DNA of 32,000 nt from Ancylobacter moscoviensis. GTDB taxonomy: Bacteria > Pseudomonadota > Alphaproteobacteria > Rhizobiales > Xanthobacteraceae. The stretch's first letter is position 1. Each line of letters opens with the position of its first letter. The stretch is from positions 465,406 to 497,405 of the forward strand of contig NZ_VMBP01000001.1 of the NCBI RefSeq assembly GCF_007559435.1, in the 5' to 3' direction. The notes beneath the pieces were generated by a model, which saw only the letters and a program-made list of their open reading frames with translations, was not told the origin of the DNA and ran no database searches. Shown here one piece after another: positions 3,419-20,708 of the stretch. A program made the translations under genes and the position numbers.

Positions 3419-3492
3419 CCAAACAGGATGGACAGCGCAATGCTTAGATGTAATCGAATACCTTGGAAGCGCCGCACTGGAGGATGCCGTTG

Positions 3493-4206
3493 ATGATCGA
3501 TGAAGTGTCCGAACAGGGCGGTAACGCGATCTCCCCCCTCGTTTATCTTGTCGATGACGACGGGGATTTTCGCGAGGAAATGGTTTTTGGCCTATCCAGG
3601 CTGGGCCTGGACGTGCACGGCTTTCACAGTGCCGCGGCCCTCTACCGGGCCTACGCCGCCAAGCCCTCCGACATCGTCATTCTCGACATTGGTCTGGACG
3701 GCGAGGATGGTCTGTCCATCGCGGCCCATTTGCGGGCTTCGCAATCGGTCGGGATCGTCATGGCGACGGCCCGAAGCTCCATAGACGACCGGGTGAATGG
3801 CCTCAAGAAGGGAGCGGACGCTTACCTCGTCAAACCCATCGATGTTCGGGAGCTTGCCGCCACCGTGGTCGCGCTCAACGAGCGCCTCGGCAGGCACCGC
3901 GCCCCTTTGCCGCCCCCAACGCCCCGATGGGCGCTGGTGGAAGGTGGCTGGGTGCTCACCGACGGCATCGGCCATCGTCTCCGCCTGACCACCTCGGAAC
4001 AATGTTTCCTGGGGCGCCTGTTCAGTGAGCGCGGCGAGACCGTAGCGCGGCACGCTCTCGTCGAAGCCCTGGGCGCCGACGTCCATGACTTTAACTACGC
4101 GCACCTTGACACCATTGCGAGCCGCCTGCGTCGAAGGGCCGAGAAAGCCAACATGCGGCTTCCTTTGCATGCCGTTCGCGGGGTGGGCTTCGCCTTCACC
4201 GACTAG
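3493..4206 (+). CDS. OmpR/PhoB-family response regulator (receiver + winged-helix output)
   Basis: The receiver carries VYLVDDD...IVILDIGLDGEDG...LVKP. The C-terminal part, LTTSEQCFLGRLF...VRGVGFAF, looks like a winged helix. It is divergent from the kinase. GGAGG at 3479-3483 favours the ATG at 3493, although the ORF is open from 3463. Confidence 0.85.
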   Translation: MIDEVSEQGGNAISPLVYLVDDDGDFREEMVFGLSRLGLDVHGFHSAAALYRAYAAKPSDIVILDIGLDGEDGLSIAAHLRASQSVGIVMATARSSIDDRVNGLKKGADAYLVKPIDVRELAATVVALNERLGRHRAPLPPPTPRWALVEGGWVLTDGIGHRLRLTTSEQCFLGRLFSERGETVARHALVEALGADVHDFNYAHLDTIASRLRRRAEKANMRLPLHAVRGVGFAFTD

Positions 4207-5291: not shown

Positions 5292-6794
5292 ATGCCTTTG
5301 AAAAGGGAATTGCGGCGCAGTTGCTCTGCGCTGGCGATTGTGTGCGTGTTGGGAATGGCCGGCCCGGTCTTCGCCCAGACGGCGTCGAACGAGGAATTAT
5401 TCAAGCTTATTCAGGAGCTTCAGACGAAGCAGAGGGCTCTTGAAAACAAGCTCGGAGCCGCAAACGGCGAAATTGCGCGGCTCAAATCTCAACAGTCAAG
5501 GAACTCGGCATTCGCCGCGGCCCCGGCGGTTGGCGTCCAGACCGGAAGCATCGATTCCGGCCCGATCGGCTTCAACCCGCCGCCTGATCCGAGACGCGCC
5601 GTCAGTACGACAAACGTGCGCGTGGAAGCGGGCGGCGGCTACAACGGAGCCGGCTTCGGCGAGGTCGGCGGCTCACTCGCCGTCCCACTCGGCGACAGAT
5701 ACGGCTTCCAGATCGATGCTCTGGGTGGCATGGCCGAGGAAAACGGCATTGCCGGCGCGGCCGCCCACCTTTTCTGGCGCGATCCCGAGGTTGGCGCGCT
5801 CGGTCTTTACGGGAGCTACCTCTACGGCACCGCAGACTGGGGCTTCGACTCCAACGGCTTTGCCAATTCCGGAATGTACGATTTCAAGGGCGGCCTTGAA
5901 GGTCAGCTCTATCTCGGACAATTCACCCTGCAGGGTATCGTCGGCGTCGAGTGGAACAATTTCGGGAGCGGGGATGCCTTTGGCTATTATGGCCAGAGCG
6001 AAGCGCGCTTCTTCGACGACATCCGGCTGGCCTGGTACGCGACAGACGACTTCAAGCTGAGCATCGGCCATCGCTATACGAACGGCGCGAATCAGCTTGT
6101 CGGCGGCCTTGAATACCTGGCCGATTTTGGAGGGGGAACGGCGGCGTCACTGTTCCTCGACGCGTCGTACAGCACCGAGCGCCCGGATTACGGCTATTAC
6201 GGCGATCATTACTCGGGCGACGACTTCACGGTCCTGGCGGGCATCCGGGTCTATTTCGGCTCGGGCAGCACGCCGGCGCCTTCGACAAGCACCGGTGGCT
6301 ACTTCTCGAAGGAGCACGGTTACATCCCGGCCAAGGCTCCCAGCCAGCCCGGTGGACGCTCGCTCAAGCAGCGGGATCGCGGCGATCTGATGCCGAGCTA
6401 TCTCGGCTTCGACGTCGGCGATCTGCCGAAGGCACGGAAGGCGGCTGTCGTCGGTCTGCCCGGTGTGCCGGGAGCGCCGGGCAATCCTGGAACGCCTGGA
6501 ACACCTGGAACACCTGGAACGCCCGGCGCTGCCGGTGCGCCCGGTTCGGACGGCACTCCCGGTACGCCCGGCAAGGACGGTCTTCCCGGTGCACCCGGTT
6601 CGAACGGTGATCCCGGCGCCCCCGGTGCGCCCGGCAAGGATGGTCTTCCCGGGACCCCCGGTTCGGACGGTCTCCCCGGTACACCCGGTTCGAGCGGCGA
6701 GCCCGGTACGCCCGGTCCGGAAGGGTCCCCCGGCGTCCCGGGCAGTCCTGGCCCGTCCGGTCCCCCCGGCCCTCCCGGACCTCCCGGTCCCTGA
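5292..6794 (+). CDS. Secreted chimeric protein: signal peptide, short coiled coil, Omp25/31-like beta-barrel region, linker, C-terminal collagen-like triple-helix repeat
   Basis: 500-aa ORF. The signal peptide [30 protein letters not shown] is followed by the heptad-like [35 protein letters not shown]. Alternating amphipathic strands follow ([76 protein letters not shown]). The protein ends in 113 aa of perfect G-X-Y. Confidence 0.8.
6453..6791 (+). repeat. Collagen-like G-X-Y repeat-coding tract (37 uninterrupted triplets + GP), with 9-bp near-tandem units
   Basis: [34 protein letters not shown]...[11 protein letters not shown] has Gly at every third residue with no interruption. At the DNA level, ggaacgcct/ggaacacct/ggaacacct/ggaacgccc lies around 6489-6524. 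Confidence 0.9.
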
Positions 6795-6802
6795 AGCTTC
6801 TG

Positions 6803-6885
6803 ACGCCAGCGGCCGAAATCGAATGCAGCCGCTGGCGTGGCAGCACAATACGAGCAGCCCGTCTCGGTCGGGCGACGGGCTGCTC
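6803..6885 (+). terminator. Two strong GC hairpins downstream of the collagen-like gene (terminator-like)
   Basis: Hairpin 1 pairs ACGCCAGCGGC (6803-6813) with GCCGCTGGCGT (6828-6838). Hairpin 2 pairs GAGCAGCCCGTC (6852-6863) with GACGGGCTGCTC (6874-6885). Only a weak T-rich tail (cgatttgatt) follows. Confidence 0.5.
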
Positions 6886-6914
6886 GACGCCCGATTTGAT
6901 TGCGAAGGCTGACC

Positions 6915-7685
6915 ATGACGGGACCAAAACTCGAGTGCTATGCGTTGCACGATCCTTCGCCGCAGCTGGTGGCGGCCGCCGCGGATCGGGACTGGATGGA
7001 CGCGACCAACCAGCATTTCGCTTACCGCTGCACGCCCCTCTCCATTGCCAACGCTTCCGGGTGGGAGGTGCTGAATCCCGTCGGCTTCTCGGCCACCTGG
7101 ACCGGATGGAACGGCAAGCAGGACGTCATTCTCCGCCCGCACGAGGCGGGCGTGAATCTGCGCCACACCGGGCTGTTCTTCGGCCACGGAATCCTGAGTT
7201 TCCACCCCGGCTATCTCTTCAGGACCGATCCCGACTGGACAATGTGGGTTCGTGGCTCTCCCAACCGTCTCAAGGATGGGATCCAGCCGCTCGATGGCAT
7301 CGTCGAAACCGGCTGGCTGCCGTTCACCTTCACCATGAACTGGAAGTTCACGCGCCCCTGCACGGTGCATTTTGAGAAGGGAGAGCCCTTCTGCTTCATC
7401 ACGCTGGTGCCGGCCGTCACGATCGAGAGCGTGCAACCGGTGATCCACCGCATCGCCGAAAATGCCGAACTGAACAGGGAATACAAATCCTGGACAAGCG
7501 AGCGGACGAAATTCAGCGCAGCCATCGACCTCGGTGATCCCCTGGCCAATGAACAGAAATGGCAAAAGAACTATCTCGTCGGCCGCTCGCCGAGCGGTAA
7601 CTCCGTCGCCGGCGACAATCACCGCGTGAAGCGCAACCTCAAGGCGCCCATCTGGGCCGACAAGCCGCCCGCGTCGGAAGACTGA
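6915..7685 (+). CDS. Hypothetical protein, DUF6065-like
   Basis: The ORF is open from 6900. GAAGG at 6905-6909 precedes the ATG at 6915. The N-terminal motif [21 protein letters not shown] resembles, from memory, the conserved C-x-P-x(3)-AN-x(2)-GWE core of the DUF6065 family. GC3-rich codon usage supports that it is coding. Confidence 0.6.
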
Positions 7686-7761
7686 GCCCGCTCTGGCCCA
7701 GCGGATGAGGCGCACCCCGCATTTCGGCCCGCGGGAGCTGGAAAAGCGGGGAGCGGGTCAC

Positions 7762-8064
7762 TCAGCGCCCCAGCCGACATCGGTACTTTGCCTGAAAGCT
7801 GACGCCCCGATGGAGTTGGCAGGCCCCCGAACCTCTTTTCGTCAGCGGCCCAAAGCCGTGTTCTCCAGGATGCCCATGCGGATCACGCTGACCCCGCCAT
7901 CGGCGAGGTCCGGCAGGCGCGCGAAGCTGGGCCACGACGGCATAGGCGTCGGCGGGAATGTCGGCATAGCGCACGCCGTCAGCCCCTCGGGCGGTCGCAC
8001 CTGTGGGGAGCGCGGCCGCGACCAATGCTGCCGGCGCTGCACGGGATGGGAGCTTGCGGGGCAT
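7762..8064 (-). pseudogene. Possible frameshifted small gene (unknown function)
   Basis: The ATG at 8064 opens MPRKLPSRAAPAALVAAALPTGATARGADGVRYADIPADAYAVVAQ. After that, GC3-rich coding signal moves to another frame (SFARLPDLADGGVSVIRMGILENTALGR, stop at 7842). No family was recognised. Confidence 0.3.
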
Positions 8065-8081
8065 GGCCGGTCTCCTTGCGC

Positions 8082-8477
8082 TCAGCGCGCTGCCGACACC
8101 ATCTTGCGCCGCGCCTCGAGCGCGTCGTCGAAGGTCTGCTTGACCGGACCCAGTGCCTGTACGAACTCGAGCTGCTCGCCTTCCGAGCCGGTGCAGTAGA
8201 TCAAGCGCCATCCGTCCGACTTGCCTTCGGTGATTCCGTTGGAGTTGGCTTCGAGCGGGGTTGCGCGACGCTCGGCCTCGTTCGCCACGGTCACGATGCG
8301 GTTCGCGCGGACAGCCGTGCCAGCGTCGCCGGGAGGCCGCTGCGCCGAGCAGCGCGTCGAGCGCAAAACCAAGACGACATCCCATACCGGACGCCGATTG
8401 GTATTCCGGCAATCCTGCCCGGCAAGTTCGCGGTTCAAACCGGCGGTGCGCTCATTTCTCGCGAAACCGGACTGCAT
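8082..8477 (-). CDS. Hypothetical small protein (only the C-terminal part of about 95 aa looks coding)
   Basis: GC3-rich codons run through ...ANRIVTVANEAERRATPLEANSNGITEGKSDGWRLIYCTGSEGEQLEFVQALGPVKQTFDDALEARRKMVSAAR. The 5' third has poor codon bias, so the true start is probably an internal TTG/GTG near 8375. The stop lies 17 nt upstream of the next small ORF. Confidence 0.35.
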   Translation of the reverse strand: MQSGFARNERTAGLNRELAGQDCRNTNRRPVWDVVLVLRSTRCSAQRPPGDAGTAVRANRIVTVANEAERRATPLEANSNGITEGKSDGWRLIYCTGSEGEQLEFVQALGPVKQTFDDALEARRKMVSAAR

Positions 8478-8723
8478 CGCCGCACGCGAGAGAATATCCC
8501 CAAAGGCCTTACCTCGGCGGCCCTTTTCCGAGTCAGGTCCGGCGCCATGGAGACAACCATGAACCGGAAACGTGCCGCGCTTTCCGGCGGCTCTCGCAAC
8601 GCGCCAGAGGCTGAATATTCAGTGATATCAATTACGTGAATGGCTGGCGGAGGATGGGAAACTGGATGCGGACGTTCTTCTCGTAACAGGCCGAACTACG
8701 GCGCAAGGCCACGCGCTCCCAGA

Positions 8724-9173
8724 TCAGACCCACGGGTTCTCGAAAACGACGCTTGCCACGAGAGAGATTGCACGCCTCGCATTTGTCTCATGATCCGATC
8801 GTGAGCTGTAATGGTCGTCGATTATTATCTTTGGTCCTCTAGACGGCTTGAAATGAACCAGAGCATTGCGCTCCCTTCGCAACCATTCAAGATCACCTGC
8901 AAAGTCAGAATTGGCAAAGGCCGCCTGCATGCCTCCGTCGAACTCCTGACCGAGTTCTGCTTCTCGAAGGTGAGCGTCAACTACAGTGCAAGACAAAATA
9001 ATCGTGCTGATGAATGCGCCCGCACAGAAAACGGATTGCAGATCCACAAGCAGTGCAGTTGCGTGCTCACCAACAACGTATGCGCCACCGCGTCGTTCAA
9101 TATCGAACTCCGCATCAAACCACGCGCGCCGGGCCTCCCACGTCTCGCTATTCGGATATTCGATCTGATCCAT
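8724..9173 (-). CDS. HEPN-motif protein (DUF4145-like all-alpha protein, putative RNase/toxin)
   Basis: 149-aa ORF in a visibly lower-GC patch. It carries the canonical HEPN R-N-x3-H motif in LEWLRRERNALVHF, preceded by a helix resembling HEPN cores (GAFISTIILSCTVVDAHLREAEL). Confidence 0.65.
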   Translation of the reverse strand: MDQIEYPNSETWEARRAWFDAEFDIERRGGAYVVGEHATALLVDLQSVFCAGAFISTIILSCTVVDAHLREAELGQEFDGGMQAAFANSDFAGDLEWLRRERNALVHFKPSRGPKIIIDDHYSSRSDHETNARRAISLVASVVFENPWV

Positions 9174-9258
9174 GCTCGCCTAGCCAAATCGTCTATAATT
9201 TGTGATTCAAAGGCCATTTCAGTGGTGCTGCAAGACAAAGTTTGATTTTTGAATATAT

Positions 9259-9301
9259 GGTCAAGGCAACATACGAGCATCCGATCGAACATGCCTTGAC
9301 C
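9259..9301 (-). terminator. 10-bp perfect hairpin just downstream of the HTH gene (weak terminator or regulatory structure)
   Basis: GGTCAAGGCA (9259-9268) pairs with TGCCTTGACC (9292-9301) around a 23-nt loop. On the minus strand it is followed by the AT-rich atatattcaaaaatc, with no clean U-tract. Confidence 0.35.
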
Positions 9302-9308
9302 ACTATCA

Positions 9309-9689
9309 TCACATGGTTCTGTCGTTCAGCTTTCTGATGGTTGCCAGGAGATCCTCGGCAGCATATTCGAGATGGGCAAGTTTGACAGCGGCGATTAGAT
9401 CGGGGCGTCCAGCCATGCCCAGGAAGGCATGAAGCACCTCATCGGAGTGCCGGACAAGAGCGACGAGATGCTCCCCGCTCGGACCGTAGCGCCCAGAGAA
9501 CCAGTTCTTCGCGGTTCGTTCGTTGGCTCCGGTCCAAGCTGCAGCCGTTTTCACGGCAGCATGAGTTGAACCGAGCGACCGCTTCAACGCAGACGCAATC
9601 TCCACGGCGAATCGCGTCTCGCTCGACTGCGGCCCGCCACCATTCAACCCATTGCCCGGAAAGGACTTGCCCTTTTTCGGAAACGACAT
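9309..9689 (-). CDS. Small HTH-like DNA-binding protein (repressor or antitoxin candidate)
   Basis: The ATG at 9689 is preceded by AAGGAG 8 nt upstream. The segment AVKTAAAWTGANERTAKNWFSGRYGPSGEHLVALV looks like an XRE-type helix-turn-helix. The gene is divergent from the recombinase. The longer ORF reaching 9809 would overlap the recombinase start. Confidence 0.65.
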   Translation of the reverse strand: MSFPKKGKSFPGNGLNGGGPQSSETRFAVEIASALKRSLGSTHAAVKTAAAWTGANERTAKNWFSGRYGPSGEHLVALVRHSDEVLHAFLGMAGRPDLIAAVKLAHLEYAAEDLLATIRKLNDRTM

Positions 9690-9763
9690 TCCACGCTCCT
9701 TCGCTTTAAGTTGGCGAAGGGCATTGAGCTGGAGGCGTTGCAGGAACGACGAGATACGACCGA

Positions 9764-11359
9764 GTGCCGCGTGAGGATGGAGCATTGAAAGGGCAACTCT
9801 CGAAGCCAAAACGTAAGGTCGATGATGATGCCGGCAACGATATTGCCGCCGTCGCCTACGTGCGCATGTCGACGGACCATCAGAAGTACTCGACGGAGAA
9901 CCAACTCGACGTCATCAAGAAGTATGCTGTAGCGCGTGGTCTGACGATTTTGCACGTCTTCGAGGACTCCGGACGAAGTGGTCTTCGTCTCGATGGACGG
10001 GAGGCGCTGCAAAGCCTGATGGCCGAGGTCACATCCGGTCACGCCGGATTCTCAGCGATACTTGTCTACGACGTGAGTCGCTGGGGCCGCTTCCAGGACG
10101 CGGACGAAGGCGCCTATCATGAGCACATCTGCTCCCGCGCCGGCATTCGGGTTCACTATTGCGGGGAGCAGTTCGAGAACGACGGTAGCATCGGTTCCAA
10201 TCTGCTGAAAACCGTCAAGCGCGTTATGGCGGGCGAGTACAGTCGCGAGCTTTCAGTCAAGGTATTTGCGGGCCAATGCCGCTTGGTCGAACTCGGATTT
10301 CGGCAGGGCGGTACGCCAGGCTACGGCCTGCGCCGTGTGTTGATCGACGAGCACGGCAACACCAAGGGCGAACTTGGGCGAGGCGATCGAAAAAGCCTTC
10401 AGACCGACCGTGTCGTGCTGATTCCAGGACCGACCGAGGAGGTCGACACTGTCCAGCGGATGTATCGCTTGTTCGTGCATGAGGGGCGATCCGAGAGAGA
10501 AATCGCGGCTGCACTGAACGCTGACGGGATCATAACGGACTTCAGCCGGCCGTGGACGCGGGCGGCGGTTCATCAAGTCCTGACCAACGAAAAATACATC
10601 GGCAATAACGTCTACAACAAGGTCTCGTTCAAGCTGAAGCAACGGCGCGTCGTCAATCCGAGAGAGATGTGGATCCGGGCTGAAGGCGCGTACTCGCCGG
10701 TCGTCGATCAGGCGCTTTTCGAGCGCGCACGCGCGATCATTGACGCGCGCAGCCGGCACTATTCCGACGAAGAGCTGCTGGCGATGCTCCGAGCCCTGCT
10801 CGAAGAATATGGCAGCCTGTCGGGCATCGTGATCGACGAGCACGACGACATGCCGTCGTCGAGCGCATATCGGTATCGCTTCGGCAGCCTGCTGCGAGCC
10901 TACGAGTTGATCGGCTACGAGCCCGATCGCGACTACCGCTACATCGAAGTCAACCGCGCCTTGCGCGAGGCGCATCCGCAGGTCGTCGCGGACGTTATGG
11001 CCGGAATTGCCGCGGCAGGCGGGCGGTCCGAGCGAGATCCCATCAGTGATCTGATCCGCGTGAATGACGAATTCACGGCTTCGATTGTCATCGCGCGCTG
11101 CTGTGAAACCCAGACGGGATCGTTGCGATGGCGAATCCGGCTCGACGTCGGTCTCGTCCCGGACATCACGATTGCGGTCAGGATGAACGAGGAGAACAAG
11201 GCGCCCCTCGACTACTACGTTCTGCCAGGCATCGACATGAGCCTGCCACGCCTTCGTCTGGCCCATCAGAATGGGTTGGCGCTCGATGCCTATCGCTTTG
11301 AAACGCTCGATTTCTTCTATGCGCTGGCCGGGCGGGCCTATTTTTCGGAGGCGGCTTGA
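9764..11359 (+). CDS. Large serine recombinase (resolvase catalytic domain + recombinase domain)
   Basis: The catalytic context AVAYVRMSTDHQ, then VYDVSRWGR, and a recombinase-domain pattern (GGTPGYGL...VQRMYRLFVHEGRSEREIAAALNADGIIT...W...VHQVLTNEKYIGN) are all present. No CxxC zinc ribbon was seen in the C-terminal third. The start is GTG 9764 or TTG 9785. Confidence 0.9.
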   Translation: MPREDGALKGQLSKPKRKVDDDAGNDIAAVAYVRMSTDHQKYSTENQLDVIKKYAVARGLTILHVFEDSGRSGLRLDGREALQSLMAEVTSGHAGFSAILVYDVSRWGRFQDADEGAYHEHICSRAGIRVHYCGEQFENDGSIGSNLLKTVKRVMAGEYSRELSVKVFAGQCRLVELGFRQGGTPGYGLRRVLIDEHGNTKGELGRGDRKSLQTDRVVLIPGPTEEVDTVQRMYRLFVHEGRSEREIAAALNADGIITDFSRPWTRAAVHQVLTNEKYIGNNVYNKVSFKLKQRRVVNPREMWIRAEGAYSPVVDQALFERARAIIDARSRHYSDEELLAMLRALLEEYGSLSGIVIDEHDDMPSSSAYRYRFGSLLRAYELIGYEPDRDYRYIEVNRALREAHPQVVADVMAGIAAAGGRSERDPISDLIRVNDEFTASIVIARCCETQTGSLRWRIRLDVGLVPDITIAVRMNEENKAPLDYYVLPGIDMSLPRLRLAHQNGLALDAYRFETLDFFYALAGRAYFSEAA

Positions 11360-12261
11360 TGCAAGGCGATATAGTGAACGGGAGCCAGAAGCAGGTAGCC
11401 CTCATCCCGACCGAGCGGGTGCGCGTGCTGAATCCTCGCGCGCGCAATCGGCGCAACTTCGAGGAGATCGTCGACAACATTGCCAAAGTCGGACTGAAGC
11501 GGCCCATCACGGTCAGCAGACGGCCAGGAAGCGATCCGACGGAATATGATCTCGTATGCGGTCAAGGACGGCTGGAGGCATTCATCCAGCTCAAGCAGAG
11601 CGAGATCCCGGCCATCATCATCAACGCCAACGAGGATGAATGTTTGGTGATGAGCCTGGTCGAGAATTGCGCTCGTCGTCAGCATCGAGCGATCGATCTG
11701 ATGCAGGAAATCGGGACGCTGCGCCGCCGCGGCTACAACGACCGTCAGATCGCCGAGAAGATCGGCGTCAGCCCGGAATACGTGAACATGATCGCCGGGC
11801 TGCTGGAGCGTGGTGAAGAGCGTCTGGTCTCGGCGGTGGAAACGGGGCTCTTACCGCTCAATCTCGCCATTGAAATCTCGCGCACCGACGATGAGGGCGC
11901 ACAACGCGCTCTGATGGACGCCTACACCGAGAAGAAGCTGCGGGGCAAAAAGCTCGCTGCCGTTCGTCGGCTGTTGCAGCAGCGCAAGCGCCGTGGGCGC
12001 CATGTCGACGAAACCCCGTTCGGCCGCAAGGTCCAGCGACCACTGACGAGCGATGCGCTTGTCCGGGTCTATCGGCAGGAAGCGGATCGCCAGAAACTGA
12101 TGATCAAGAAGGCGGAGGTCACGCAGAATCGGCTTCTGTTTGTGGTGGAGGCGTTCCGTGCTCTGCGCGAGGACGAGCACTTCCTGACGCTTTTGCGTGC
12201 AGAGGGATTGGATTCCATGCCCGCTTGGCTGGAGAGCCGGCTGGTCGCGGGGGCGAACTGA
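11359..12261 (+). CDS. ParB/Spo0J-like protein 1 (ParB N-terminal domain + HTH)
   Basis: The ATG at 11359 shares one nucleotide with the recombinase TGA (TTGATG). ParB N-domain motifs are present (VRVLNPRARN...GLKRPITV...LVCGQGRLEAF...LVENCARR), followed by an HTH (YNDRQIAEKIGVSPEYVNMIAGLL). Confidence 0.85.
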   Translation: MQGDIVNGSQKQVALIPTERVRVLNPRARNRRNFEEIVDNIAKVGLKRPITVSRRPGSDPTEYDLVCGQGRLEAFIQLKQSEIPAIIINANEDECLVMSLVENCARRQHRAIDLMQEIGTLRRRGYNDRQIAEKIGVSPEYVNMIAGLLERGEERLVSAVETGLLPLNLAIEISRTDDEGAQRALMDAYTEKKLRGKKLAAVRRLLQQRKRRGRHVDETPFGRKVQRPLTSDALVRVYRQEADRQKLMIKKAEVTQNRLLFVVEAFRALREDEHFLTLLRAEGLDSMPAWLESRLVAGAN

Positions 12262-13178
12262 TGAAACGCGAGCCGCATCGCCCATCCGACACCGTGAAGA
12301 TCGCCTTCGAAGAAGACTTCGTCGTCCTGCCGATTAGCGCGATCCTGCCGGTTCACACGCTGCGCAAGACGGTGAAGGCGAGTCAGAAATACCGGCAGAT
12401 CACCGCATCGGTGCGTGAGGTCGGCTTGGTCGAGCCGCCGGTGGTCGCCCGCGACAAAAGCAAATCCGGAACCTTCCTGCTGCTTGATGGGCATTTGCGG
12501 ATCGAGATTCTGAAGGACCTCGGCATAACCGAAGTCGAATGCCTCATTTCAACAGACGACGAGGCGTTCACTTACAACAAGCGGATCAGCCGGCTCGCGG
12601 CCGTTCAGGAACACAAGATGATCAGGCGTGCGATCGAGCGCGGCGTGCCCGAGGAGAAGATTGCCAAGGCGCTCGATATCAATGTCCAGAGTGTGCAGCG
12701 CAAGGTGCGGCTGCTGGACGGGATTTGCGAGGAGGCCGTCGCGCTCCTGAAAGACAAGCCATGCCCCATCGGCGTCTTCGAGACATTGCGGAAGATGAAA
12801 ACGCTCCGCCAGATCGAGGCCGCCGAGCTTCTCGTCAACGCCAACAACTACTCGGTCGCCTACATCTCGGCGATTCTGGCCGGCACCCCGCAGTCCCAGC
12901 TCGTCGACACGAGCAAATCGAAACGCCTCAAGGGTCTGACGCCGGAGGCCATGGCTCGAATGGAGAGCGAGCTCAGTCGGTTGCAGGAAGCGATAACCTC
13001 GATCCAGGACTCCTACGGGAAGGACCACCTGCAGCTCACCGTCGTCAAAGGATATCTCGCAAAGCTGCTCGGGAACGGTCGCATCGTCCGCTACCTGATG
13101 ATGCATCGCCCCGAGTTTGTCGGGGAGTTTCAGACGATTGCAGAAATGACGTCGACCATGCCGGCCGAGTTGTCCTGA
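12261..13178 (+). CDS. ParB/Srx-like protein 2 (DGHxR-type ParB N-domain, RepB-like C-terminal region)
   Basis: The ATG at 12261 shares one nucleotide with the preceding TGA (CTGATGA). Motifs are ILPVHTLRK...VGLVEPPVV...LLLDGHLRIEILKDLG, an HTH (VPEEKIAKALDINVQSVQRKVRLL) and a helical tail. It has diverged strongly from protein 1. Confidence 0.85.
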   Translation: MKREPHRPSDTVKIAFEEDFVVLPISAILPVHTLRKTVKASQKYRQITASVREVGLVEPPVVARDKSKSGTFLLLDGHLRIEILKDLGITEVECLISTDDEAFTYNKRISRLAAVQEHKMIRRAIERGVPEEKIAKALDINVQSVQRKVRLLDGICEEAVALLKDKPCPIGVFETLRKMKTLRQIEAAELLVNANNYSVAYISAILAGTPQSQLVDTSKSKRLKGLTPEAMARMESELSRLQEAITSIQDSYGKDHLQLTVVKGYLAKLLGNGRIVRYLMMHRPEFVGEFQTIAEMTSTMPAELS

Positions 13179-13362
13179 CCGCCGGTCTTGGCGACGACGA
13201 TGGGGACCCGGACCCGATAAGCGCGGGGACCGCGGGAGAAGCCGCACGGTGGGGCGGATCAAGCGCGGTGGTGGGAATGGCGGCGAACCCGTTCGGAGCC
13301 CACAAGGCCGGCTGAGTTTTCGCCGGCCGCTGCCGGGTTGCACCGGCATTTCGATGCGGCGC

Positions 13363-13403
13363 GGGGCGTGCCGGACCAGGGATTGTCGGCACGCCCCTTT
13401 TTT
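13363..13403 (+). terminator. Rho-independent terminator closing the recombinase-ParB-ParB operon
   Basis: GGGGCGTGCCG (13363-13373) pairs with CGGCACGCCCC (13387-13397) and is followed by TTTTTT (13398-13403). It sits in the convergent gap with the minus-strand late operon. A second hairpin, GGCCGGC/GCCGGCC, lies at about 13306-13328. Confidence 0.7.
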
Positions 13404-13406
13404 CGC

Positions 13407-13604
13407 TCACTTGGGTGCGCTCCCGACGCCGGCACGCAGAGTGCCGAGGCCGAGCGCGGCGAGGATCTGGGTGAGCCAATCGGAGCCGACATCGACGCCA
13501 GGCACGTCGATGCCGAGCCCCTTCTCGACGATCACGACGAGGATCAGCGTCGCGGCGATGATGTAGGTGCGGTAGCCCGCGCCGAACTGCAGGATGGCGT
13601 TCAT
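13407..13604 (-). CDS. Small two-TM membrane protein (holin-like, by position)
   Basis: The ATG at 13604 follows a GGAGA Shine-Dalgarno. The 65-aa product MNAILQFGAGYRTYIIAATLILVVIVEKGLGIDVPGVDVGSDWLTQILAALGLGTLRAGVGSAPK has two hydrophobic helices. It lies directly after the endolysin. Confidence 0.55.
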   Translation of the reverse strand: MNAILQFGAGYRTYIIAATLILVVIVEKGLGIDVPGVDVGSDWLTQILAALGLGTLRAGVGSAPK

Positions 13605-13627
13605 GGGTGGTCTCCAATGAAAGATGA

Positions 13628-14197
13628 TCAAGCCTCGTTGACCGAGAGGCTGCCGGAAGAGCCGAGGACGATGGGGCGCACGTTCGCTGGCTGGGCCAGG
13701 TAGGCGGGCCGGCGCACGGCAACGAGGCGCTGCTTGGAGAGGCGGGAGATCGTCACGCGGTCGGACTGGTTTCCGCCGAGGACATGGAAGGCCGAGGCGT
13801 CGTGGCCGACATAGAGGCCGACATGCCCTCCGCAACTGCGCTTGAAGACGAGGACATCGCCGAGTGCCGCTGCGCTTTTCGGGATCGCTTTGCCGAACGC
13901 GGTCCAGGCGAGCGCCGAGAGGTAGAGTTTCGGTGGATTGCGTTCCGGCCGGCGTTCGACATTCGCCCGGTGGGCGGTCACCGCCATGAACAGCCCGCAC
14001 CAGGGGATCGCATCGGCGTCGTAGAAGCCGCCATAGTCTCGGCCGAGTCCTGCCGCCTGAAGCTCACGCTGCCAGCCGAGAATGCGCGGATTGTCCGCGT
14101 TGCCCGGCGCCTCCATGACACCGAATTCTTTCAGGGCTTCGACCAGCATGCGCGGTCCCGGCTCGCTCGCGAGCCAGCGGTAGTCTTTGGGCAACAT
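13628..14197 (-). CDS. Phage cell-wall hydrolase / endolysin, TIGR02594-type (NlpC/P60-CHAP-like)
   Basis: The ATG at 14197 is preceded by GGAGA. The motifs NPRILGW, IPWCGLFMAV (catalytic Cys context), GDVLVFKR..GGHVGLYVG and VLGGNQSDRVTI match the TIGR02594 family pattern as I recall it. Confidence 0.8.
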   Translation of the reverse strand: MLPKDYRWLASEPGPRMLVEALKEFGVMEAPGNADNPRILGWQRELQAAGLGRDYGGFYDADAIPWCGLFMAVTAHRANVERRPERNPPKLYLSALAWTAFGKAIPKSAAALGDVLVFKRSCGGHVGLYVGHDASAFHVLGGNQSDRVTISRLSKQRLVAVRRPAYLAQPANVRPIVLGSSGSLSVNEA

Positions 14198-15468: not shown

Positions 15469-18400
15469 TCAGAGCGTGCTTGTGATTTCGGCGCTTCCGC
15501 CCGGACCGAAGACGCGCGAGACCTGCGCCACGCGCCATTTGAGCGTCGCCGGCTGCGCCCCGAAATCCGCGACCTGCTGGGCCGCCGTGTAGAGAAGGTT
15601 CGCGCTCGTCACCCGCGTCGCCCGGAGCACGGTCGATCCGTTGAGGATCGCAACGTCGTATTCCTCGGCCTCTTCGCCGAGTGGAACCTCGGCAAACCAG
15701 GAATCGCCGCCGATGCGGCTGCGCCGGATCCAAGAGAGGCGCACATCGCCTCCGGTTTCGCGGCTGGCCCTCAGATGAACCGGCGTGAATGGCTTCAGGC
15801 CGCGTCCGCCATTGGCGAAGGGCAGCGACAGCGCATGATCGCCGGCGGGCCCTTCCGGCACGGGCGCCCCCTTGTAGGCGATCGTCAACCCGAGCCGCGA
15901 AACCGAGAACGTGGGGCGCACCTGCCGGGCGGGGTCGAGCATGATGAAGCGCGATCCGGCCGGATGGGTGACGACCTCGCCCTCGGTGCCGCGCTGGCCG
16001 CGCAGGAGGCGCGAGAGGCGATAGCGCCCGGCGGCAATCAACTCGGCAGTCGCGAACTGGACGATCTCGTTGCCGATCAGCGCCGCGTTCGATCCCGCCA
16101 GCACCCGCTCGTCGGGCAGAGATTGCAGTGCGCCGTGGTCGAGCTGAACCTCGACGCTGTTCCCGCGATCCCAAATCCAGACCGGCCCGGAAGACAGAGT
16201 GGTCACTGTCACCCCCATGGTCGAGGCAAGCGTCGCCACGGTTGCCGAAACATAGTCGAGACCGTCGGCGGTCGGCTGAAAGAGGCTGGCGCCCCGGAAC
16301 CGCCCACCGCCGAGCGGACATGCCGCCATGTAGAAGGACGGCGATGATGCCTCGTGCGCATCAATGAGGATGGGCATATCGAGAAGCTCGATGCGCACCG
16401 GTGAGACGGGCTCGGGGGCGGCAGGTGGCAGGCTCCCCGACCCTGTCGGCGTCGAGACGAAATCCGGATTACCGCCATCGGTGGCCTGGCCGCGCACCAG
16501 CACGAGGCCGGGCTTGCCAAAGGTGACCGAGGTGACACGGTATCGCCGCAGCGCACCGTCGACCGGCACCTCGACAACGTCGGTCGGGTCAATCTTGAGC
16601 CCTCGGGTTGGCAGGCGAAGATCGATTGCCTCGCGTCCCTGCCACATCTCGCGCAACGCCCGCTGCCCGATGGTTTGCGCCTGCTCGACCGAAAGCACGA
16701 TCGGCAAAGAGAAGGTCGTCACGCTGTCGGAGCGGCCGACCTGCTTGCGGATGGTGACGGTCGAGGACTGATAGTCGCGCCCCTCGTCGATGTGGACGAC
16801 ATCGATGGCGATGGGCAACTCGGTATCCTGCGTGCGCTCGATTTTCACCCGTGAGCGATCGCTGTCGCTGTCCGAGGCGCCAAGATCTTCAGCATCGATC
16901 GCTACGATGCCACTGCCGCCGCGCTTGACGAAGACGAGCTTGCCGTCGCGCTCGACACAATCGAAGAAGTAGGCCGTCTGAAGCACCGCGATCATGTCGC
17001 GGATCGATTTGCGTTCGGTCACCACATAGCCGACGACCTCGTCATCAAGCGCCGAGGCATCGAACTCGGATGCAAGCAACCCCGCACGCAGGCATAGATC
17101 GCCGACGATGTCGGAGAGTCGCATGTTGCCAATCTTTCCGTTGATCCAGTGACCGAGCCGGTAGTTCGCCCCGTCGCTCCAGACATTCGATAGCGTCGGG
17201 AACCATGGATAGGGCCGCGCGTCCCAACACCAGACGAAGCGTCTGGCCAGCATCGGTCCACCATAGGCGGGCGAGACCGGGTTGTTGGCCGGGTCGCGCC
17301 AGTATTCCTCCGTCGCCTCGAGCGCGGCGCGTTGGACGACACGGTCGACCGCGCCCGTCGAATAGTAGGGCGCGAAGCTCTCGACCGATTTCGGGTCGAT
17401 GAAGACGTTCGGCTGGTTGGTGGCGCAGTTCACCGTCGGAAAGCCGATCTCCGTGAACCAGATCGGCTTGGCGCGCGGCGTCCAATCCGTCGGCGATCCA
17501 GTCGGGACGCCGGCGACCCTTGGGATGTGAGTGTTCTCCCACCACCAGCGCAGCGCCTTGATCGCCCAGAAGGGCTCAGAGATCGGCGACCGGATCGGCG
17601 CAAGCCCACGCCGGTCGAGATCGCGGTCGGAGGGGCTCGCATAGTAGTAGTCGACGAGTTCACCGCCCTGCCAGCCGGCCTTGATCGCTTCCTTGTCCTG
17701 GACAGCGCGCGGCGCGTCAGTCAGCGGGAAATAGGCGTCGATCCCGACGACATCGATACTCGGATCGGCCCAGAGTTCATCGAGCGGGAAATCGACATCG
17801 CCGCCGCCACGGTCGTGGTAGCGATATTCCGACCAGTCGGCGCAATAGGTCACCTGGCAGGCAGAGCCGAGACGGCTCTTCGCCTCTGCGGCGATCTGCT
17901 TCCAATAGGCCACGGCTGGATAAGCTCCGCCGGCGTCCCGGATGCGATTGAGGGCGACCATTTCCGAACCGATCGCAAAGCCATCGACACCGCCTGCCTG
18001 CTCGCAGAGCGTCATTCCGTGCCGGATGAGCCGCAGATATCCATCGGCACGGGTGAAGAAGCCGGGCACGTCCGCGGCGGTGCCGGTGATGCGCCCGCGC
18101 CACGGAAAAGGCGCCGGATCGGGCGGCGGGATGTCCATCAGGATGAACGGGTAGAACAGAACCTTCAGGCCGCGCGCCTTCAGGTCCTGAATCGCGCGCA
18201 CAACGGCGCCGTCGGCGATCGTCCCGCCATAATAGAGGCCGAGCGAACCGTCGGGATGGGTATAGGACGAGACCATCGGCCAATGCGGCAGGCCGGAGAT
18301 CCCACCATCCATGCCGAAGAGCGGACGGCCGATGCCGGCGACGCTCCAGACATGAGGGCGGCTCTCCGGCACCTGATCGGCATAGACGCCCGTCTCGCAT

Positions 18401-19317
18401 TCCGGGCGCAACGAACAGGTCGCGACATCGAGCGACGTGCCAAACCAAGCATAGACCAGCGAGATCCATTCGACGTTCGGCAGTTCGCGCTGCAGGTTGT
18501 CGATTGCGACCGAGAAGTCGGCGCGCTTCTGGCCGGCATGGGCGTTGATCGCCGCCTTGAAACCGCTGCCCGCACCATGCCGGTTCGAGAACACGACGTC
18601 CGGATCGTAGGCGAACTCGCCCGATGCCGGGATGAGGCATAGGCTCTCGACGAGATGGCGCGCATCCGACGTGCCGGCGGGTGATCCGCGAAACACCTCG
18701 ATCTCGAAGTTCGGAAAGCGGTTGCCGAAGGCGGTGAGGTGGAGATTTTCGAGAACGACATAGGCCGTGCCGCGGAACGCCGGCGTGCGGTCTGCGCCTT
18801 CGACCGCCTGGATCAGCGGATCGGGGCCTTGCGCCTCGTCGCCATAGTAGATGCGGATTTCGTCGATGTGGTCGGAATCGATCGGCTGGCCGTCGACCCA
18901 GATGCGGTAGACCGAGGTCAACGGTCCTTCGCCAAGCCCCAGCGCCACATCGGCATAGTAGTGGTAGCTGGTCGTGACGACGGTCTGCGATCCGCCGCCG
19001 CCTTTGCCGCCGCCACCGACCGTTTCGGTGGTCGTGCGCACCTCCTCACGGATGCCGCGCGCCCAGATGATGTTGGCCGGGATCCGCCCTCGGCCATAGA
19101 CGTTCGGCCGGACTTGCCCGTAGGCCGATCCCGAGAGCCGGACATCGGTGACCTTGCCTTCTTCCCGCTTCTGACGGTTGGTCTGTGGGCCGAACAGCTG
19201 CTGGTCGAGGATGCCGCCGATGGTCGCGCCAAACAGCGCGCCGAGACCCTGGCCGAAGGCTCCGCCCACCGCCTGGCCGAGCGCGCCGCCCGCCAGCGTG
19301 AGTACGAGCTGGGCCAT
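15469..19317 (-). CDS. Host-specificity / baseplate 'megatron' protein (RcGTA g15-like, with TIM-barrel-like glycoside hydrolase region)
   Basis: 1282 aa. The Gly-rich N-terminus MAQLVLTLAGGALGQAVGG, then TTTETVGGGGKGGGG, QGPDPLIQAVEG, the large central domain and the position after the g12/g13/g14-like genes all match g15-type proteins. Confidence 0.9.
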   Translation of the reverse strand: MAQLVLTLAGGALGQAVGGAFGQGLGALFGATIGGILDQQLFGPQTNRQKREEGKVTDVRLSGSAYGQVRPNVYGRGRIPANIIWARGIREEVRTTTETVGGGGKGGGGSQTVVTTSYHYYADVALGLGEGPLTSVYRIWVDGQPIDSDHIDEIRIYYGDEAQGPDPLIQAVEGADRTPAFRGTAYVVLENLHLTAFGNRFPNFEIEVFRGSPAGTSDARHLVESLCLIPASGEFAYDPDVVFSNRHGAGSGFKAAINAHAGQKRADFSVAIDNLQRELPNVEWISLVYAWFGTSLDVATCSLRPECETGVYADQVPESRPHVWSVAGIGRPLFGMDGGISGLPHWPMVSSYTHPDGSLGLYYGGTIADGAVVRAIQDLKARGLKVLFYPFILMDIPPPDPAPFPWRGRITGTAADVPGFFTRADGYLRLIRHGMTLCEQAGGVDGFAIGSEMVALNRIRDAGGAYPAVAYWKQIAAEAKSRLGSACQVTYCADWSEYRYHDRGGGDVDFPLDELWADPSIDVVGIDAYFPLTDAPRAVQDKEAIKAGWQGGELVDYYYASPSDRDLDRRGLAPIRSPISEPFWAIKALRWWWENTHIPRVAGVPTGSPTDWTPRAKPIWFTEIGFPTVNCATNQPNVFIDPKSVESFAPYYSTGAVDRVVQRAALEATEEYWRDPANNPVSPAYGGPMLARRFVWCWDARPYPWFPTLSNVWSDGANYRLGHWINGKIGNMRLSDIVGDLCLRAGLLASEFDASALDDEVVGYVVTERKSIRDMIAVLQTAYFFDCVERDGKLVFVKRGGSGIVAIDAEDLGASDSDSDRSRVKIERTQDTELPIAIDVVHIDEGRDYQSSTVTIRKQVGRSDSVTTFSLPIVLSVEQAQTIGQRALREMWQGREAIDLRLPTRGLKIDPTDVVEVPVDGALRRYRVTSVTFGKPGLVLVRGQATDGGNPDFVSTPTGSGSLPPAAPEPVSPVRIELLDMPILIDAHEASSPSFYMAACPLGGGRFRGASLFQPTADGLDYVSATVATLASTMGVTVTTLSSGPVWIWDRGNSVEVQLDHGALQSLPDERVLAGSNAALIGNEIVQFATAELIAAGRYRLSRLLRGQRGTEGEVVTHPAGSRFIMLDPARQVRPTFSVSRLGLTIAYKGAPVPEGPAGDHALSLPFANGGRGLKPFTPVHLRASRETGGDVRLSWIRRSRIGGDSWFAEVPLGEEAEEYDVAILNGSTVLRATRVTSANLLYTAAQQVADFGAQPATLKWRVAQVSRVFGPGGSAEITSTL

Positions 19318-19320
19318 GGA

Positions 19321-19956
19321 TCAGGTCACAACTTCGAAGGAGAGCTGGGGAAGCCGGTTGCCGTAGGGTGTGATGTGCAAGCGTTCGAGGACGACATAGG
19401 CGAGCCCGCGATAGGCCGGTGTGTTCGCCACGCCCTCGACCGCTTGGATCAGGGGATCCGGCCCCTGTGTGTTCGAGCCGGTGTGGACGCGCATGTCCCC
19501 GACATGGGCTGGATCAAACACATTGCCGTCGGCGAAGGCGCGCGGCACCGAGGCGATCGGCCCCTGGCAGAGCCCGACCGCCACGTCGCAATAGTAGTGG
19601 TATTCCACGGTCGTTGTCGTCGTGCTGCCACCGCCGCCGCCCTTGCCGCCGCCGCCGACCGTCTCGGTCGTGGTGCGTGTCTCCTCTTCGAAACCGCGCA
19701 TCCAGATGATGTTCGAGGAAAGGCGCCCCTTGCCGTAAAGCGCCGGGATCACGCTTCCATAGCTCGACGACTGGACGCGCAGATCCTGTAGCCGCGCCCC
19801 GTAGATCGTCTGATCGGGCGTGCCCGAGCCGAAGATCTGCTGGTCGACCATGCCCCCGACATAGCCGCCGATCGCGCCGCCAATGGCGCCCCCGATGCCG
19901 GGCAGCAGCAGATTGCCGAGGACGTAGCCGCCGATGGTGAGGACGATGCGGGCCAT
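19321..19956 (-). CDS. Stand-alone paralog of the g15 N-terminal domain (211 aa)
   Basis: It aligns end to end with residues 1 to about 212 of the downstream 1282-aa protein. Shared blocks are DQQ[IL]FG, NIIW.RG, RTTTETVGGGGKGGGG, YHYY.DVA.GL, QGPDPLIQAVEG, AYVVLE.LH and GNR.P. Its stop TGA lies 3 nt before the g15 ATG. Confidence 0.8.
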   Translation of the reverse strand: MARIVLTIGGYVLGNLLLPGIGGAIGGAIGGYVGGMVDQQIFGSGTPDQTIYGARLQDLRVQSSSYGSVIPALYGKGRLSSNIIWMRGFEEETRTTTETVGGGGKGGGGGSTTTTTVEYHYYCDVAVGLCQGPIASVPRAFADGNVFDPAHVGDMRVHTGSNTQGPDPLIQAVEGVANTPAYRGLAYVVLERLHITPYGNRLPQLSFEVVT

Positions 19957-20000: not shown

Positions 20001-20708
20001 GTGGAGCCGCAGCTTTACATGTGGTCTGGAACGCGTGACCTATTCCTGAGACGGCACAGGTTTTTCGTCGACCAGGTCAAGGTGCGGGTGCTCTCACAGT
20101 TTCAAACGATCGAGGCCGACGCCGAGGCATACAGCGAGTCAGAGTATGACAGGCTCGCGTCACTCCCAGGGGATGAGAACAGCGACATGGCTGATGTCGC
20201 CGAGGCTGCCAACGACCGCGGCCAGGAGTTCTATGGCCTTCTTCACGATATGAAGAAGCAAATGATGTTGGCCGCGCTCGCAGCCATGTATCACCAGTGG
20301 GACAAGGATCTTCGCGATTTCATCGAACGTGAGCTCGTGCACTATTACGAAGGAAAGGCCGTTGCCGATCTCGTTTGGAAGCAGGACGTCGGGAAAATCT
20401 TTGACCTGCTCAGAGAGTTTGGATGGGATTGTCGGGCCAGCTCCTTCTTCGACCGAATCGAGGCCTGCCGCCTCATCGTCAACGTCTATAAGCATGGGAA
20501 AGGTCGATCCCTTGACGACCTCGCTCGCTCCTTTCCTCAATATCTAAATCATCCGTTCGTCAGCTTGGCCGAGAAGCCCTCGTTCGCCGCCGACTTTCTC
20601 GATTATGAGTGGGTTGAGATCTCAGACGATCAATTTGACGAGATGGCGAAAGCCATTTCCTGGTTCTGGGAGGAGTTCCCTGAGCGCCTTTTTCTGAAAG
20701 TGAGTTAA
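20001..20708 (+). CDS. Orphan all-alpha protein encoded opposite to the tail operon (moron-like, function unknown)
   Basis: 235-aa ORF, starting at GTG 20001 or at ATG 20019 (MWSGTRD). Its GC content is visibly lower than that of the flanks. No family was recognised, and it carries only a non-canonical HEPN-like stretch, ACRLIVNVYKHGKG. Confidence 0.65.
   Translation: MEPQLYMWSGTRDLFLRRHRFFVDQVKVRVLSQFQTIEADAEAYSESEYDRLASLPGDENSDMADVAEAANDRGQEFYGLLHDMKKQMMLAALAAMYHQWDKDLRDFIERELVHYYEGKAVADLVWKQDVGKIFDLLREFGWDCRASSFFDRIEACRLIVNVYKHGKGRSLDDLARSFPQYLNHPFVSLAEKPSFAADFLDYEWVEISDDQFDEMAKAISWFWEEFPERLFLKVS

Follow-up and report, generated by a model that had tools for sequence, protein, structure and literature searches.

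The window analysed here, a stretch of 32,000 nucleotides (nt) from Ancylobacter moscoviensis (contig NZ_VMBP01000001.1, positions 465,406 to 497,405), carries at the edge of a prophage three coupled genes for a large serine recombinase (LSR) and two ParB-type proteins, ParB1 and ParB2, and behind them a structured RNA of ~200 nt. The explanation that we favour, with confidence somewhat better than even, is that this trio represents the protein core of a compact family of integrative elements of Alphaproteobacteria that target tRNA-Ser genes, with the LSR acting as the integrase. Comparison of loci established the architecture of the unit, its horizontal spread, junctions of tRNA-Ser type, an element of ~5.2 kb that consists of the module only, and a covarying RNA on the operon strand. 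The initial annotation of this DNA had recognized the trio, and had missed the regulator, the attachment (att) site at 8645 and the ~200-nt RNA that extend the unit on both sides.

The recombinase-ParB trio and its spread

The protein-coding part of the unit and its control region comprise the following features.

9764-11359, plus strand: LSR, 531 amino acids (aa) from a GTG start, with the catalytic serine in VRMSTDHQ
11359-12261, plus strand (start of the open reading frame, ORF, at 11356/11359): ParB1, with ParB_N, helix-turn-helix (HTH) and RepB C-terminal (RepB_C) domains and the near-canonical boxes CGQGRLEA and VENCARR
12261-13178, plus strand: ParB2, with a diverged ParB-like N-terminal domain (LLDGHLR, TDDExFTYN, VQEHxM), HTH and RepB_C
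9309-9689, minus strand: divergent regulator of 126 aa, with its place and direction constant across nearly all loci
9690-9763, no strand: divergent control region between the regulator and the LSR operon

Reading of the sequence placed the LSR stop codon TGA at 11357-11359, where it shares its A with the ATG of ParB1 at 11359-11361, and the ParB1 stop codon TGA at 12259-12261, which shares its A with the ATG of ParB2 at 12261-12263. The trio is thus chained by overlaps of 1 nt, as had been described initially, and overlaps of 1 nt and 4 nt recur in the called genes of unrelated genomes.

Pfam searches matched the LSR to the Resolvase family (PF00239, E 4.6e-20, residues 29-164) and, after this catalytic domain, to the Recombinase domain (PF07508, E 1.3e-23, residues 225-328). 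The motif VRMSTDHQ around the serine was invariant among 36 homologues, and LSR homologues were mostly called at 524 aa. The zinc ribbon of such enzymes (Zn_ribbon_recom, PF13408) was absent in Pfam searches from the LSR and from its 120 best homologues, which agreed with the earlier description of a recombinase with a catalytic serine and a recombinase domain and no obvious zinc ribbon. An AlphaFold2 (AF2) model of the LSR had a low mean confidence score (pLDDT 60.6); its C-terminus consisted of helices plus a beta domain, where a cryptic equivalent of the zinc ribbon may lie, and its best matches in the PDB were serine integrase-att complexes.

ParB1 matched the ParB_N and RepB families in Pfam and, by sequence, the structures of Spo0J, Noc and KorB in the PDB. 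ParB2 matched RepB in Pfam (E 8.6e-55), its N-terminal region aligned to Noc and Spo0J, and its HTH and ParB/Noc-like N-terminal domain were found by NCBIfam and PDB sequence searches. The RepB C-terminal domain (PF07506) scored 117.8 bits in ParB1 and 186.1 bits in ParB2, at a cutoff of 30. Because the Pfam, NCBIfam and PDB sequence matches converge, both proteins are read as paralogues with the arrangement ParB_N-HTH-RepB_C. The box and HTH reported earlier for ParB1 were confirmed, and its RepB tail had been overlooked; the DGHxR-type box, HTH and RepB-like tail reported for ParB2 were all present. The two proteins share 22% identity, in line with the strong divergence already noted.

The segments VCGQGRLEAF of ParB1 and LLLDGHLRIE of ParB2 were invariant across clades. 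From chromosomal through plasmid copies ParB1 keeps the boxes NPRxR, CGxGRxEA and ENxxRR, and ParB2 has an invariant set of its own (LLDGHxR, DDExFTxN and QEHxM). With respect to the boxes of the cytidine triphosphate (CTP) domain of ParB proteins, ParB1 retains GxGR and EN..RR, and ParB2 has DGHLR and TDDExFTYN. ParB2-type proteins formed 304 clusters at 50% identity (E<=1e-30). ParB2 itself is 100% identical to a protein of Starkeya sp. 3C and has more than 6,800 word-sharing relatives, with an identity of 75-80% kept across orders of Alphaproteobacteria.

Annotated neighbours of the trio, here and in the other loci with listed genes, included no ParA, and a repeat search between 8500 and 13500 gave only chance-level two-copy matches for parS-like repeats, both as the initial annotation had stated. 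Additionally, no RepA or RepC was present in any gene context examined, the two ParB genes being flanked by the LSR gene and the RNA.

The spread of the unit was followed in 85 genome loci, 80 genome loci having been fetched through ParB2 (individual loci carry L numbers below). The small divergent gene, LSR, ParB1 and ParB2 were intact in nearly every sufficiently long contig of the 85 loci, and the order and overlaps of the four genes were kept amid changing neighbours. The hosts belonged to Hyphomicrobiales, Rhodobacterales, Caulobacterales and other groups, and the co-occurrence of the four genes is far beyond chance. Viral contigs also contained the four-gene set in distant copies of 40-56% identity, and altogether more than 100 viral, metagenomic and plasmid loci hold the trio with its regulator. 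Among plasmids, 111 records hold the four-gene set, 72 of them conjugative; here the NCBI pipeline names the proteins 'recombinase family protein' and, twice, 'plasmid partitioning protein RepB C-terminal domain-containing protein'. Elements that were ~96% identical were found in different genera with different flanks, and no DNA match to the module was found in the GenBank phage collection. The unit moves between orders of Alphaproteobacteria independently of the phage in the window, which answers the question, raised with the initial annotation, of whether the genes co-occur and move on their own. Damaged copies were also observed: the LSR gene of L055 is seemingly split by an insertion of ~3 kb (LSR pieces at 3050-3850, ParB1 at 7090), and L079 and L081 are truncated modules without most of the LSR.

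The divergent regulator has no Pfam family. Its 795 homologues, some of which are named 'XRE family transcriptional regulator' in UniRef, share the invariant core WTGANE.T.KNW..G.YGPS.EHL. The 5' end of the regulator gene, which adjoins the control region, is conserved at the DNA level as GGAAAGGACTTGCCCTTTTTCGGAAACGAC, and a sigma-70 consensus scan of the control region found no promoter.

Element edges and the probable tRNA-Ser target

To the left of the regulator, two further features define the edge of the element.

8645-8652, no strand: left edge, an attL-type junction; TGGCGGAG is the reverse complement of the tRNA-Ser 3' end (CTCCGCCA), and the core CGGAG is common to both ends
8724-9173, minus strand: left-slot ORF of 149 aa, where GC is low (0.54), flanked by the att edge and the regulator

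Homology with the copy of the module in a Bosea prophage begins exactly at 8645 with TGGCGGAG, and unrelated lineages begin with the same motif. In 48 of 72 loci GGCGGAG occurred no more than 2 kb before the LSR, and it lay at the homology breakpoint in every junction inspected. The 149-aa ORF of the left slot, which has no Pfam family, is common to the Bosea copy only, and other lineages differ at this place (for example, a ParE/antitoxin pair in L004). The right edge of homology coincided with the end of the terminal hairpin of the RNA, 1130-1140 nt after the ParB2 start, in many of 519 pairwise comparisons. Wherever pairwise homology was longer it continued rightward, into a prophage in the window and in Bosea, and into restriction/defence-type genes in L001 and L002.

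ARAGORN identified an intact tRNA-Ser gene on the minus strand to the right of the module in L004, L045, L063, L067, L071, L072 and L078, and no other tRNA species on that side in the loci examined. In L004, the 5.5 kb from repeat to tRNA hold only the ParE toxin-antitoxin pair, the module and one ORF, so that the LSR is the only recombinase in this element. L071 is simpler still, with the module alone in ~5.2 kb (4087 to ~9300) and no replication gene. Its junctions, GTGG-CGGAG-CGAAGG on the left and AAAT-CGGAG-GAGGTG on the right, have a common core of 5 nt only, and a putative attP reconstructed from L071 would read ..GCGAAAT-CGGAG-CGAAGGGAGC... The right junction of L071 runs on into 38 nt of tRNA-Ser, a fragment that a second element separated from the gene.

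This second and later element (L071:9296-15541) lies in the same tRNA-Ser gene, with an exact 38-nt repeat of the 3' part of the tRNA, and the two form a tandem array. Its first ORF, read by eye, seems to encode a tyrosine-type integrase. A short core as opposed to a long exact repeat is the contrast expected of serine and tyrosine recombinases; the 5-nt core and the 38-nt repeat in L071 therefore fit a serine LSR beside a tyrosine-type neighbour. In L072 a 13-nt repeat, GCAAGTGGCGGAG, bounds an island of 12 kb. An intact tRNA at one end with a displaced or mimicking 3' fragment at the other was seen in L004, L071, L072 and L078.

A search for the right end, taken to be a copy of the left terminus in inverted or direct orientation, covered the window, L001-L003 and L006 and found nothing; the right end was therefore placed beyond the fetched DNA in these loci. 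Of the functions proposed in the initial annotation, a self-contained mobile unit gained support from the spread across orders, the attL-type edge and the ~5.2 kb module-only element. An integration/excision module agreed with the tRNA-Ser junctions and with the LSR as sole recombinase, the part of the ParB proteins in it being putative.

Several further observations concern the target site. The 7-mer GGGCAAG stands just left of TGGCGGAG in at least 16 loci from different genera (among them L003, L029, L031, L033, L047, L055, L061, L070, L072, L077 and L078), and in L072 it also borders the intact tRNA-Ser; it may belong to the recognised site or form the right arm of a tandem element. In L063 another serine-recombinase gene, degenerate and with an in-frame stop, lies at 9121-9700, between a damaged RNA and the tRNA-Ser; it is left over from a different element at this tRNA. 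In L093, a distant copy that lacks the RNA, a tRNA 3' half was recognized by eye on the minus strand ~200 nt after ParB2 (~1990-2050). It resembles tRNA-Pro, received no ARAGORN call, and hints at other tRNA targets in distant clades.

A structured RNA and the surroundings of the module

DNA homology between loci extends ~150 nt beyond the ParB2 stop codon, and this non-coding stretch is nearly invariant. It belongs to an RNA with the following parts.

13199-13332, plus strand (operon strand): RNA core, with six helices in the model
13333-13362, plus strand: variable hairpin and linker of the RNA, TGCCGG..CCGGCA in the window
13363-13409, plus strand (hairpin 13363-13403): terminal G+C-rich hairpin GGGCGTGCCGG/TCGGCACGCCC and U tract, the right edge of the conserved unit

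The block 13199-13332 was present in 80 of 85 loci at 85-96% nucleotide identity, where the proteins are 67-80% identical to those of the window. The RNA occurs in the main clades of the unit, directly after ParB2 and over ~200 nt (13199-13409). Searches of Rfam 15 gave no match at E<=1 on either strand of 8500-14000, and ARAGORN found no tRNA or tmRNA in the window. The RNA is a new family without a match to a curated RNA family.

Folding of the single sequence was uninformative on either strand in this G+C-rich DNA (z about -1.4 to -1.8), and therefore only comparative evidence was counted. Base-pair changes were counted in an uncurated MAFFT alignment of 67 distinct copies. One pair changed from GC to CG 31 times and another from CG to UA 22 times; a third was GC in 52 copies, GU in 11 and AU in 4, with zero mismatches. 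On the plus strand G-U pairs were common and A-C rare, which identifies the operon strand as the folded strand. Compensatory changes were distributed over helices 2-6, and helix 1 never varied. Among 53 copies aligned by the covariance model, 15 of 31 pairs changed on both sides, in an alignment that is itself fitted to the model. None of 500 shuffles reached the observed values, and slid controls dropped to 34-49% paired. Independent analysis of 36 diverse copies by MAFFT and RNAalifold recovered helices 1-5 with the same compensations. The covariance model (R1) scored 150.6 bits on the RNA of the window.

In the variable hairpin the sequence differs by lineage and the stem is kept (for example, GCGGCCGC/GCGGCTGC and ATGACTGGC/GCTGGTCAT), and the stem of the terminal hairpin is likewise kept through compensatory changes (such as AGGCGTGCCGA/TCGGCACGCCT and GGGCGCGCCGC/GCGGCGCGCCC). 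Since core, variable and terminal stems are all conserved, the hairpin at 13363-13403 is taken as the last helix of the ~200-nt RNA. The terminator called there initially was right as to the hairpin and U run, and its membership in a longer RNA had escaped notice; the hairpin is likely both the 3' end and the terminator of the RNA and of the operon. A guide function of the variable RNA segments was considered and rejected: the longest substring that the variable part has in common with the attL region averaged 6.59, the same as in mismatched pairs.

An exact 21-nt motif of the RNA was found in 48 viral contigs, mostly right after ParB2 homologues of 42-55% identity, and in at least 120 metagenome contigs. 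Among the metagenome matches listed, the RNA directly followed a ParB2 homologue in 96 of the 113 informative contigs (85%). It also follows ParB2 on plasmid pNIN3 of Sphingobium sp. JS3065 (L095), with a match at 10370-10504 of 129 bits. The most distant ParB2 clades lack the RNA downstream. The match in L095 is overlapped by an annotated 'hypothetical protein' coding sequence (10403-10600), which is probably a spurious gene call.

In about 15% of cases, namely 17 of the same 113 metagenome contigs and 8 of the 48 viral contigs, no ParB2 was found upstream of the RNA, and two of those 17 are ParB2 remnants. The RNA-only viral contigs are L099, L101, L117, L124, L129, L125, L103 and L097; the metagenomic ones include L241, L279, L333, L339, L342 and L345. 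Their layout is a host or unrelated gene, a control region (GGAAAGAACTTGCCC..CGGAAACGAC, a motif that also occurs at the 5' end of the window's regulator gene), and the RNA. In several copies the RNA lies 25-30 nt beyond the control region and the 5' end of the regulator gene, the sequence that stands before the LSR in full modules. The RNA-only copies face convergent phage tail genes, as in the window, and score as high with the covariance model as module-linked ones. To judge from this arrangement, they look like versions of the unit with LSR-ParB1-ParB2 absent between the promoter and the RNA. A hidden Markov model search for a full-length regulator homologue upstream of the RNA-only copies gave one weak match only. 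Two other ideas were weighed. A split unit, with attP between ParB2 and RNA so that RNA and module would end up at opposite ends of the prophage, found no support, as scans with a few peptide patterns detected no ParB2 or LSR on the eight viral contigs. The RNA block as a target gene of the host was rejected on the non-syntenic position of the RNA and its place after ParB2 in the 85% of contigs given above.

As to the rest of the window, the genes downstream of the module encode phage lysis, tail, tape-measure and head proteins on the minus strand, and the trio is convergent to this late operon, as originally described. Homology with the Bosea prophage ends at 19956. The 211-aa ORF at 19321-19956 (minus strand) matches the first ~200 residues of phrog_4271, the family of the adjacent 1282-aa tail protein, and is a partial N-terminal duplicate of that protein (15469-19317, minus strand). 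A 235-aa ORF at 20001-20708 (plus strand, phrog_19541) occupies a low-GC stretch (0.57) inside the minus-strand tail operon and looks like an inserted accessory gene. On the other side, a 500-aa collagen triple-helix-repeat protein (5292-6794, plus strand) lies between host two-component genes and the left edge of the element, and 6800-8640 contains only unconvincing overlapping ORFs, with host DNA and a remnant of another element both possible.

Weighing of explanations and comparison with known systems

As an element that targets tRNA-Ser, the full unit would consist of the att edge, a variable left slot, the XRE-like regulator, the LSR-ParB1-ParB2 operon and the RNA with its terminator hairpin, in this order, and a cargo slot would lie between the RNA and the tRNA-Ser gene. 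The LSR would act as integrase and excisionase and would recombine, at the very 3' end of tRNA-Ser genes, a short core that contains CGGAG. Because a whole prophage occupies the cargo position in the window, the module would serve as the integration module of that prophage. The XRE-like protein would control the divergent promoter. With lower confidence, ParB1 and ParB2 would be made in step with the LSR, pair through their RepB C-terminal domains, and form a DNA-binding nucleotide switch without a ParA partner. The complex might work with the LSR as an architectural or directionality factor for an enzyme without the usual control element of zinc ribbon and coiled coil, or it might instead be a regulator of the element of the KorB/BisD type. 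The RNA, also at lower confidence, would be made from the same regulated promoter, and its invariant loops would act on a conserved partner.

Several points weigh against this explanation. The att assignment rests on few fully resolved loci, many left flanks share a GGGCAAG for which it does not account, and no empty site or excised-circle junction was seen in the loci compared. Since the far end of the window copy lies outside the 32 kb, its integration at tRNA-Ser is something that we infer from its left junction and from other loci. The AF2 model of the LSR, at a mean pLDDT of 60.6, is of low confidence as a predicted structure. Any contact of the ParB pair with the LSR, with DNA or CTP, or with the RNA is hypothetical. 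Copies of the trio on plasmids and in distant clades have no tRNA-Ser context and in many cases no RNA either, and the LSR may have other targets or roles there. Finally, the RNA can be kept without the three proteins.

The plasmid copies keep a partition role in consideration despite the lack of ParA, parS and replication functions. The trio could be a stabilisation module, in which the LSR resolves multimers or cointegrates and the RepB-type proteins are a partition or silencing pair, independent of ParA or borrowing that of the host, for plasmids and excised or episomal forms. We think this unlikely. The RepB partition-protein C-terminal domain of both ParBs, the 111 plasmid records (72 conjugative) with contexts that lack tRNA-Ser, and an LSR without the Pfam zinc ribbon typical of integrases speak for it. 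The absence of adjacent ParA, RepA and RepC and of parS-like repeats argues to the contrary, as do the chromosomal copies with tRNA-Ser-type junctions, the ~5.2 kb element without a replication gene, and a 531-aa LSR with a recombinase domain that best matches integrase-att complexes and not small resolvases. An exclusion system at the prophage edge, with ParB/Srx-fold nucleases or DNA-targeting factors and a recombinase that only moves the cassette, had been offered in the initial annotation and appears very improbable. Restriction-modification, BrxR and helicase genes adjoin the module in several loci, it stands at a prophage edge in the window, and some ParB/Srx-fold proteins are nucleases. 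However, such defence genes are variable cargo outside the conserved unit, and ParB1 and ParB2 align, HTH included, along the ParB, Noc and KorB DNA-binding clamps. PADLOC-DB 2.0 also gave no match for LSR and ParB1 and no assignment to a defence system, with only a weak match of ParB2 to the ParB-like part of a type II methyltransferase model.

The RNA raises explanations of its own. It could be an obligate cofactor (scaffold, guide or switch) of ParB1/ParB2 and/or the LSR that controls the place or time of recombination, which we also hold to be unlikely. Its location at the 3' end of the operon, where it is predicted to be co-transcribed, is consistent with such a machine. So are its higher conservation (85-96% nucleotide as opposed to 67-80% amino acid identity, with the exact 21-nt motif beside ParB2 homologues of only 42-55%), its position after ParB2 in most of the metagenome contigs listed and on the Sphingobium plasmid, and invariant loops that would fit sequence-specific partners. 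However, the variable parts match the att region no better than mismatched controls, distant clades have the trio without the RNA, some copies have the RNA without the trio, and we know of no serine recombinase that uses an RNA. A broader proposal, speculative and rather unlikely in our estimate, is that the ~200-nt RNA represents a new class of mobile-element RNA. In this class, it would either form a ribonucleoprotein (RNP) with ParB1/ParB2 and/or the LSR that licenses or directs integration and excision at tRNA-Ser, or act in trans on a target conserved across Alphaproteobacteria. Action in trans would account for the near-invariant loops across orders and for the retention of the RNA in prophages without the trio.

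Known systems resemble parts of the unit. Like the serine integrases Bxb1, phiC31, TP901-1, SprA and CcrA/B, the LSR has a resolvase catalytic domain with the serine followed by a recombinase domain; its model matches integrase-att complexes, its putative sites have a short common core, as would fit an attP unlike attB, and its gene lies at the edge of a prophage or island. In contrast to these enzymes, the LSR lacks a Pfam zinc ribbon, its gene is in every case coupled in translation to two ParB/RepB paralogues, with the RNA behind them in the main clades, and its proposed target is the extreme 3' end of tRNA-Ser genes. Sites of this class usually serve tyrosine integrases (PMC4383910). In genomic islands of the Islander type an intact tRNA at one end, a repeat resembling a tRNA 3' end at the other, and tandem pile-up at the same tRNA are met as well, but here the enzyme is of the serine type and the core of ~5 nt lies at the discriminator/CCA junction.

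Switches of the ParB type that act without ParA, such as KorB of RK2, BisD of ICEclc and Noc, also combine ParB_N with an HTH, have no adjacent ParA and reside on mobile elements; BisD, a CTP clamp resembling ParB, activates genes of its integrative and conjugative element (PMC12409273). Unlike these, the present system has two paralogues (22% identity) that both carry a RepB-type C-terminal domain and share an operon with a recombinase, and the GERR box is degenerate (GQGR in ParB1, GHLR in ParB2), so that any binding of CTP by the pair is putative. The RepB C-terminal domain (PF07506), well above threshold in both proteins, is that of RepB from repABC replicons, but repA, repC and parS are missing and most copies of the module are chromosomal, inside integrated elements. 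Structured RNAs beside a recombinase near the end of an element, or at the end of a prophage, are known from the IS110 bridge RNA, the P4 CI RNA and the P1 C4 RNA. In contrast, the RNA of the module has no Rfam match and no att pairing above control, and is near-invariant and not reprogrammed; IS110 additionally uses a DEDD enzyme, as opposed to the serine enzyme here. None of the known kinds, whether serine-integrase modules, ParA-less ParBs, RepB of repABC replicons or tRNA islands, combines these parts. No name or paper for the gene combination or for the RNA was found in the literature or in family and system databases; neither of the two things that would have ended the novelty of the trio, a ParA nearby or an already named module, was found. 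A survey of Paracoccus prophages described a cluster of 11 serine recombinases whose integration sites were 'not identified' (PMC6536676). As several of the loci come from Paracoccus, the module family may be this cluster.

Serine integrases are central tools of genome engineering, and the control of their direction is an active question. The present unit is a very common natural family, in which a putative integrase without a zinc ribbon is tied to two ParB-type proteins and to an RNA more conserved than any of the proteins. For a group of serine recombinases from alphaproteobacterial prophages, the analysis puts the integration site at the 3' end of tRNA-Ser genes, and it defines a cargo slot that holds prophages and restriction or defence-type gene sets. 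Additionally, it provides a new RNA family with a covariance model, in which genetics is feasible in culturable Starkeya, Bosea, Paracoccus and Rhodoblastus. If the RNP or trans-acting reading of the RNA is true, it would be the first case of a functional link between a structured RNA and a serine recombinase or proteins of the ParB family.

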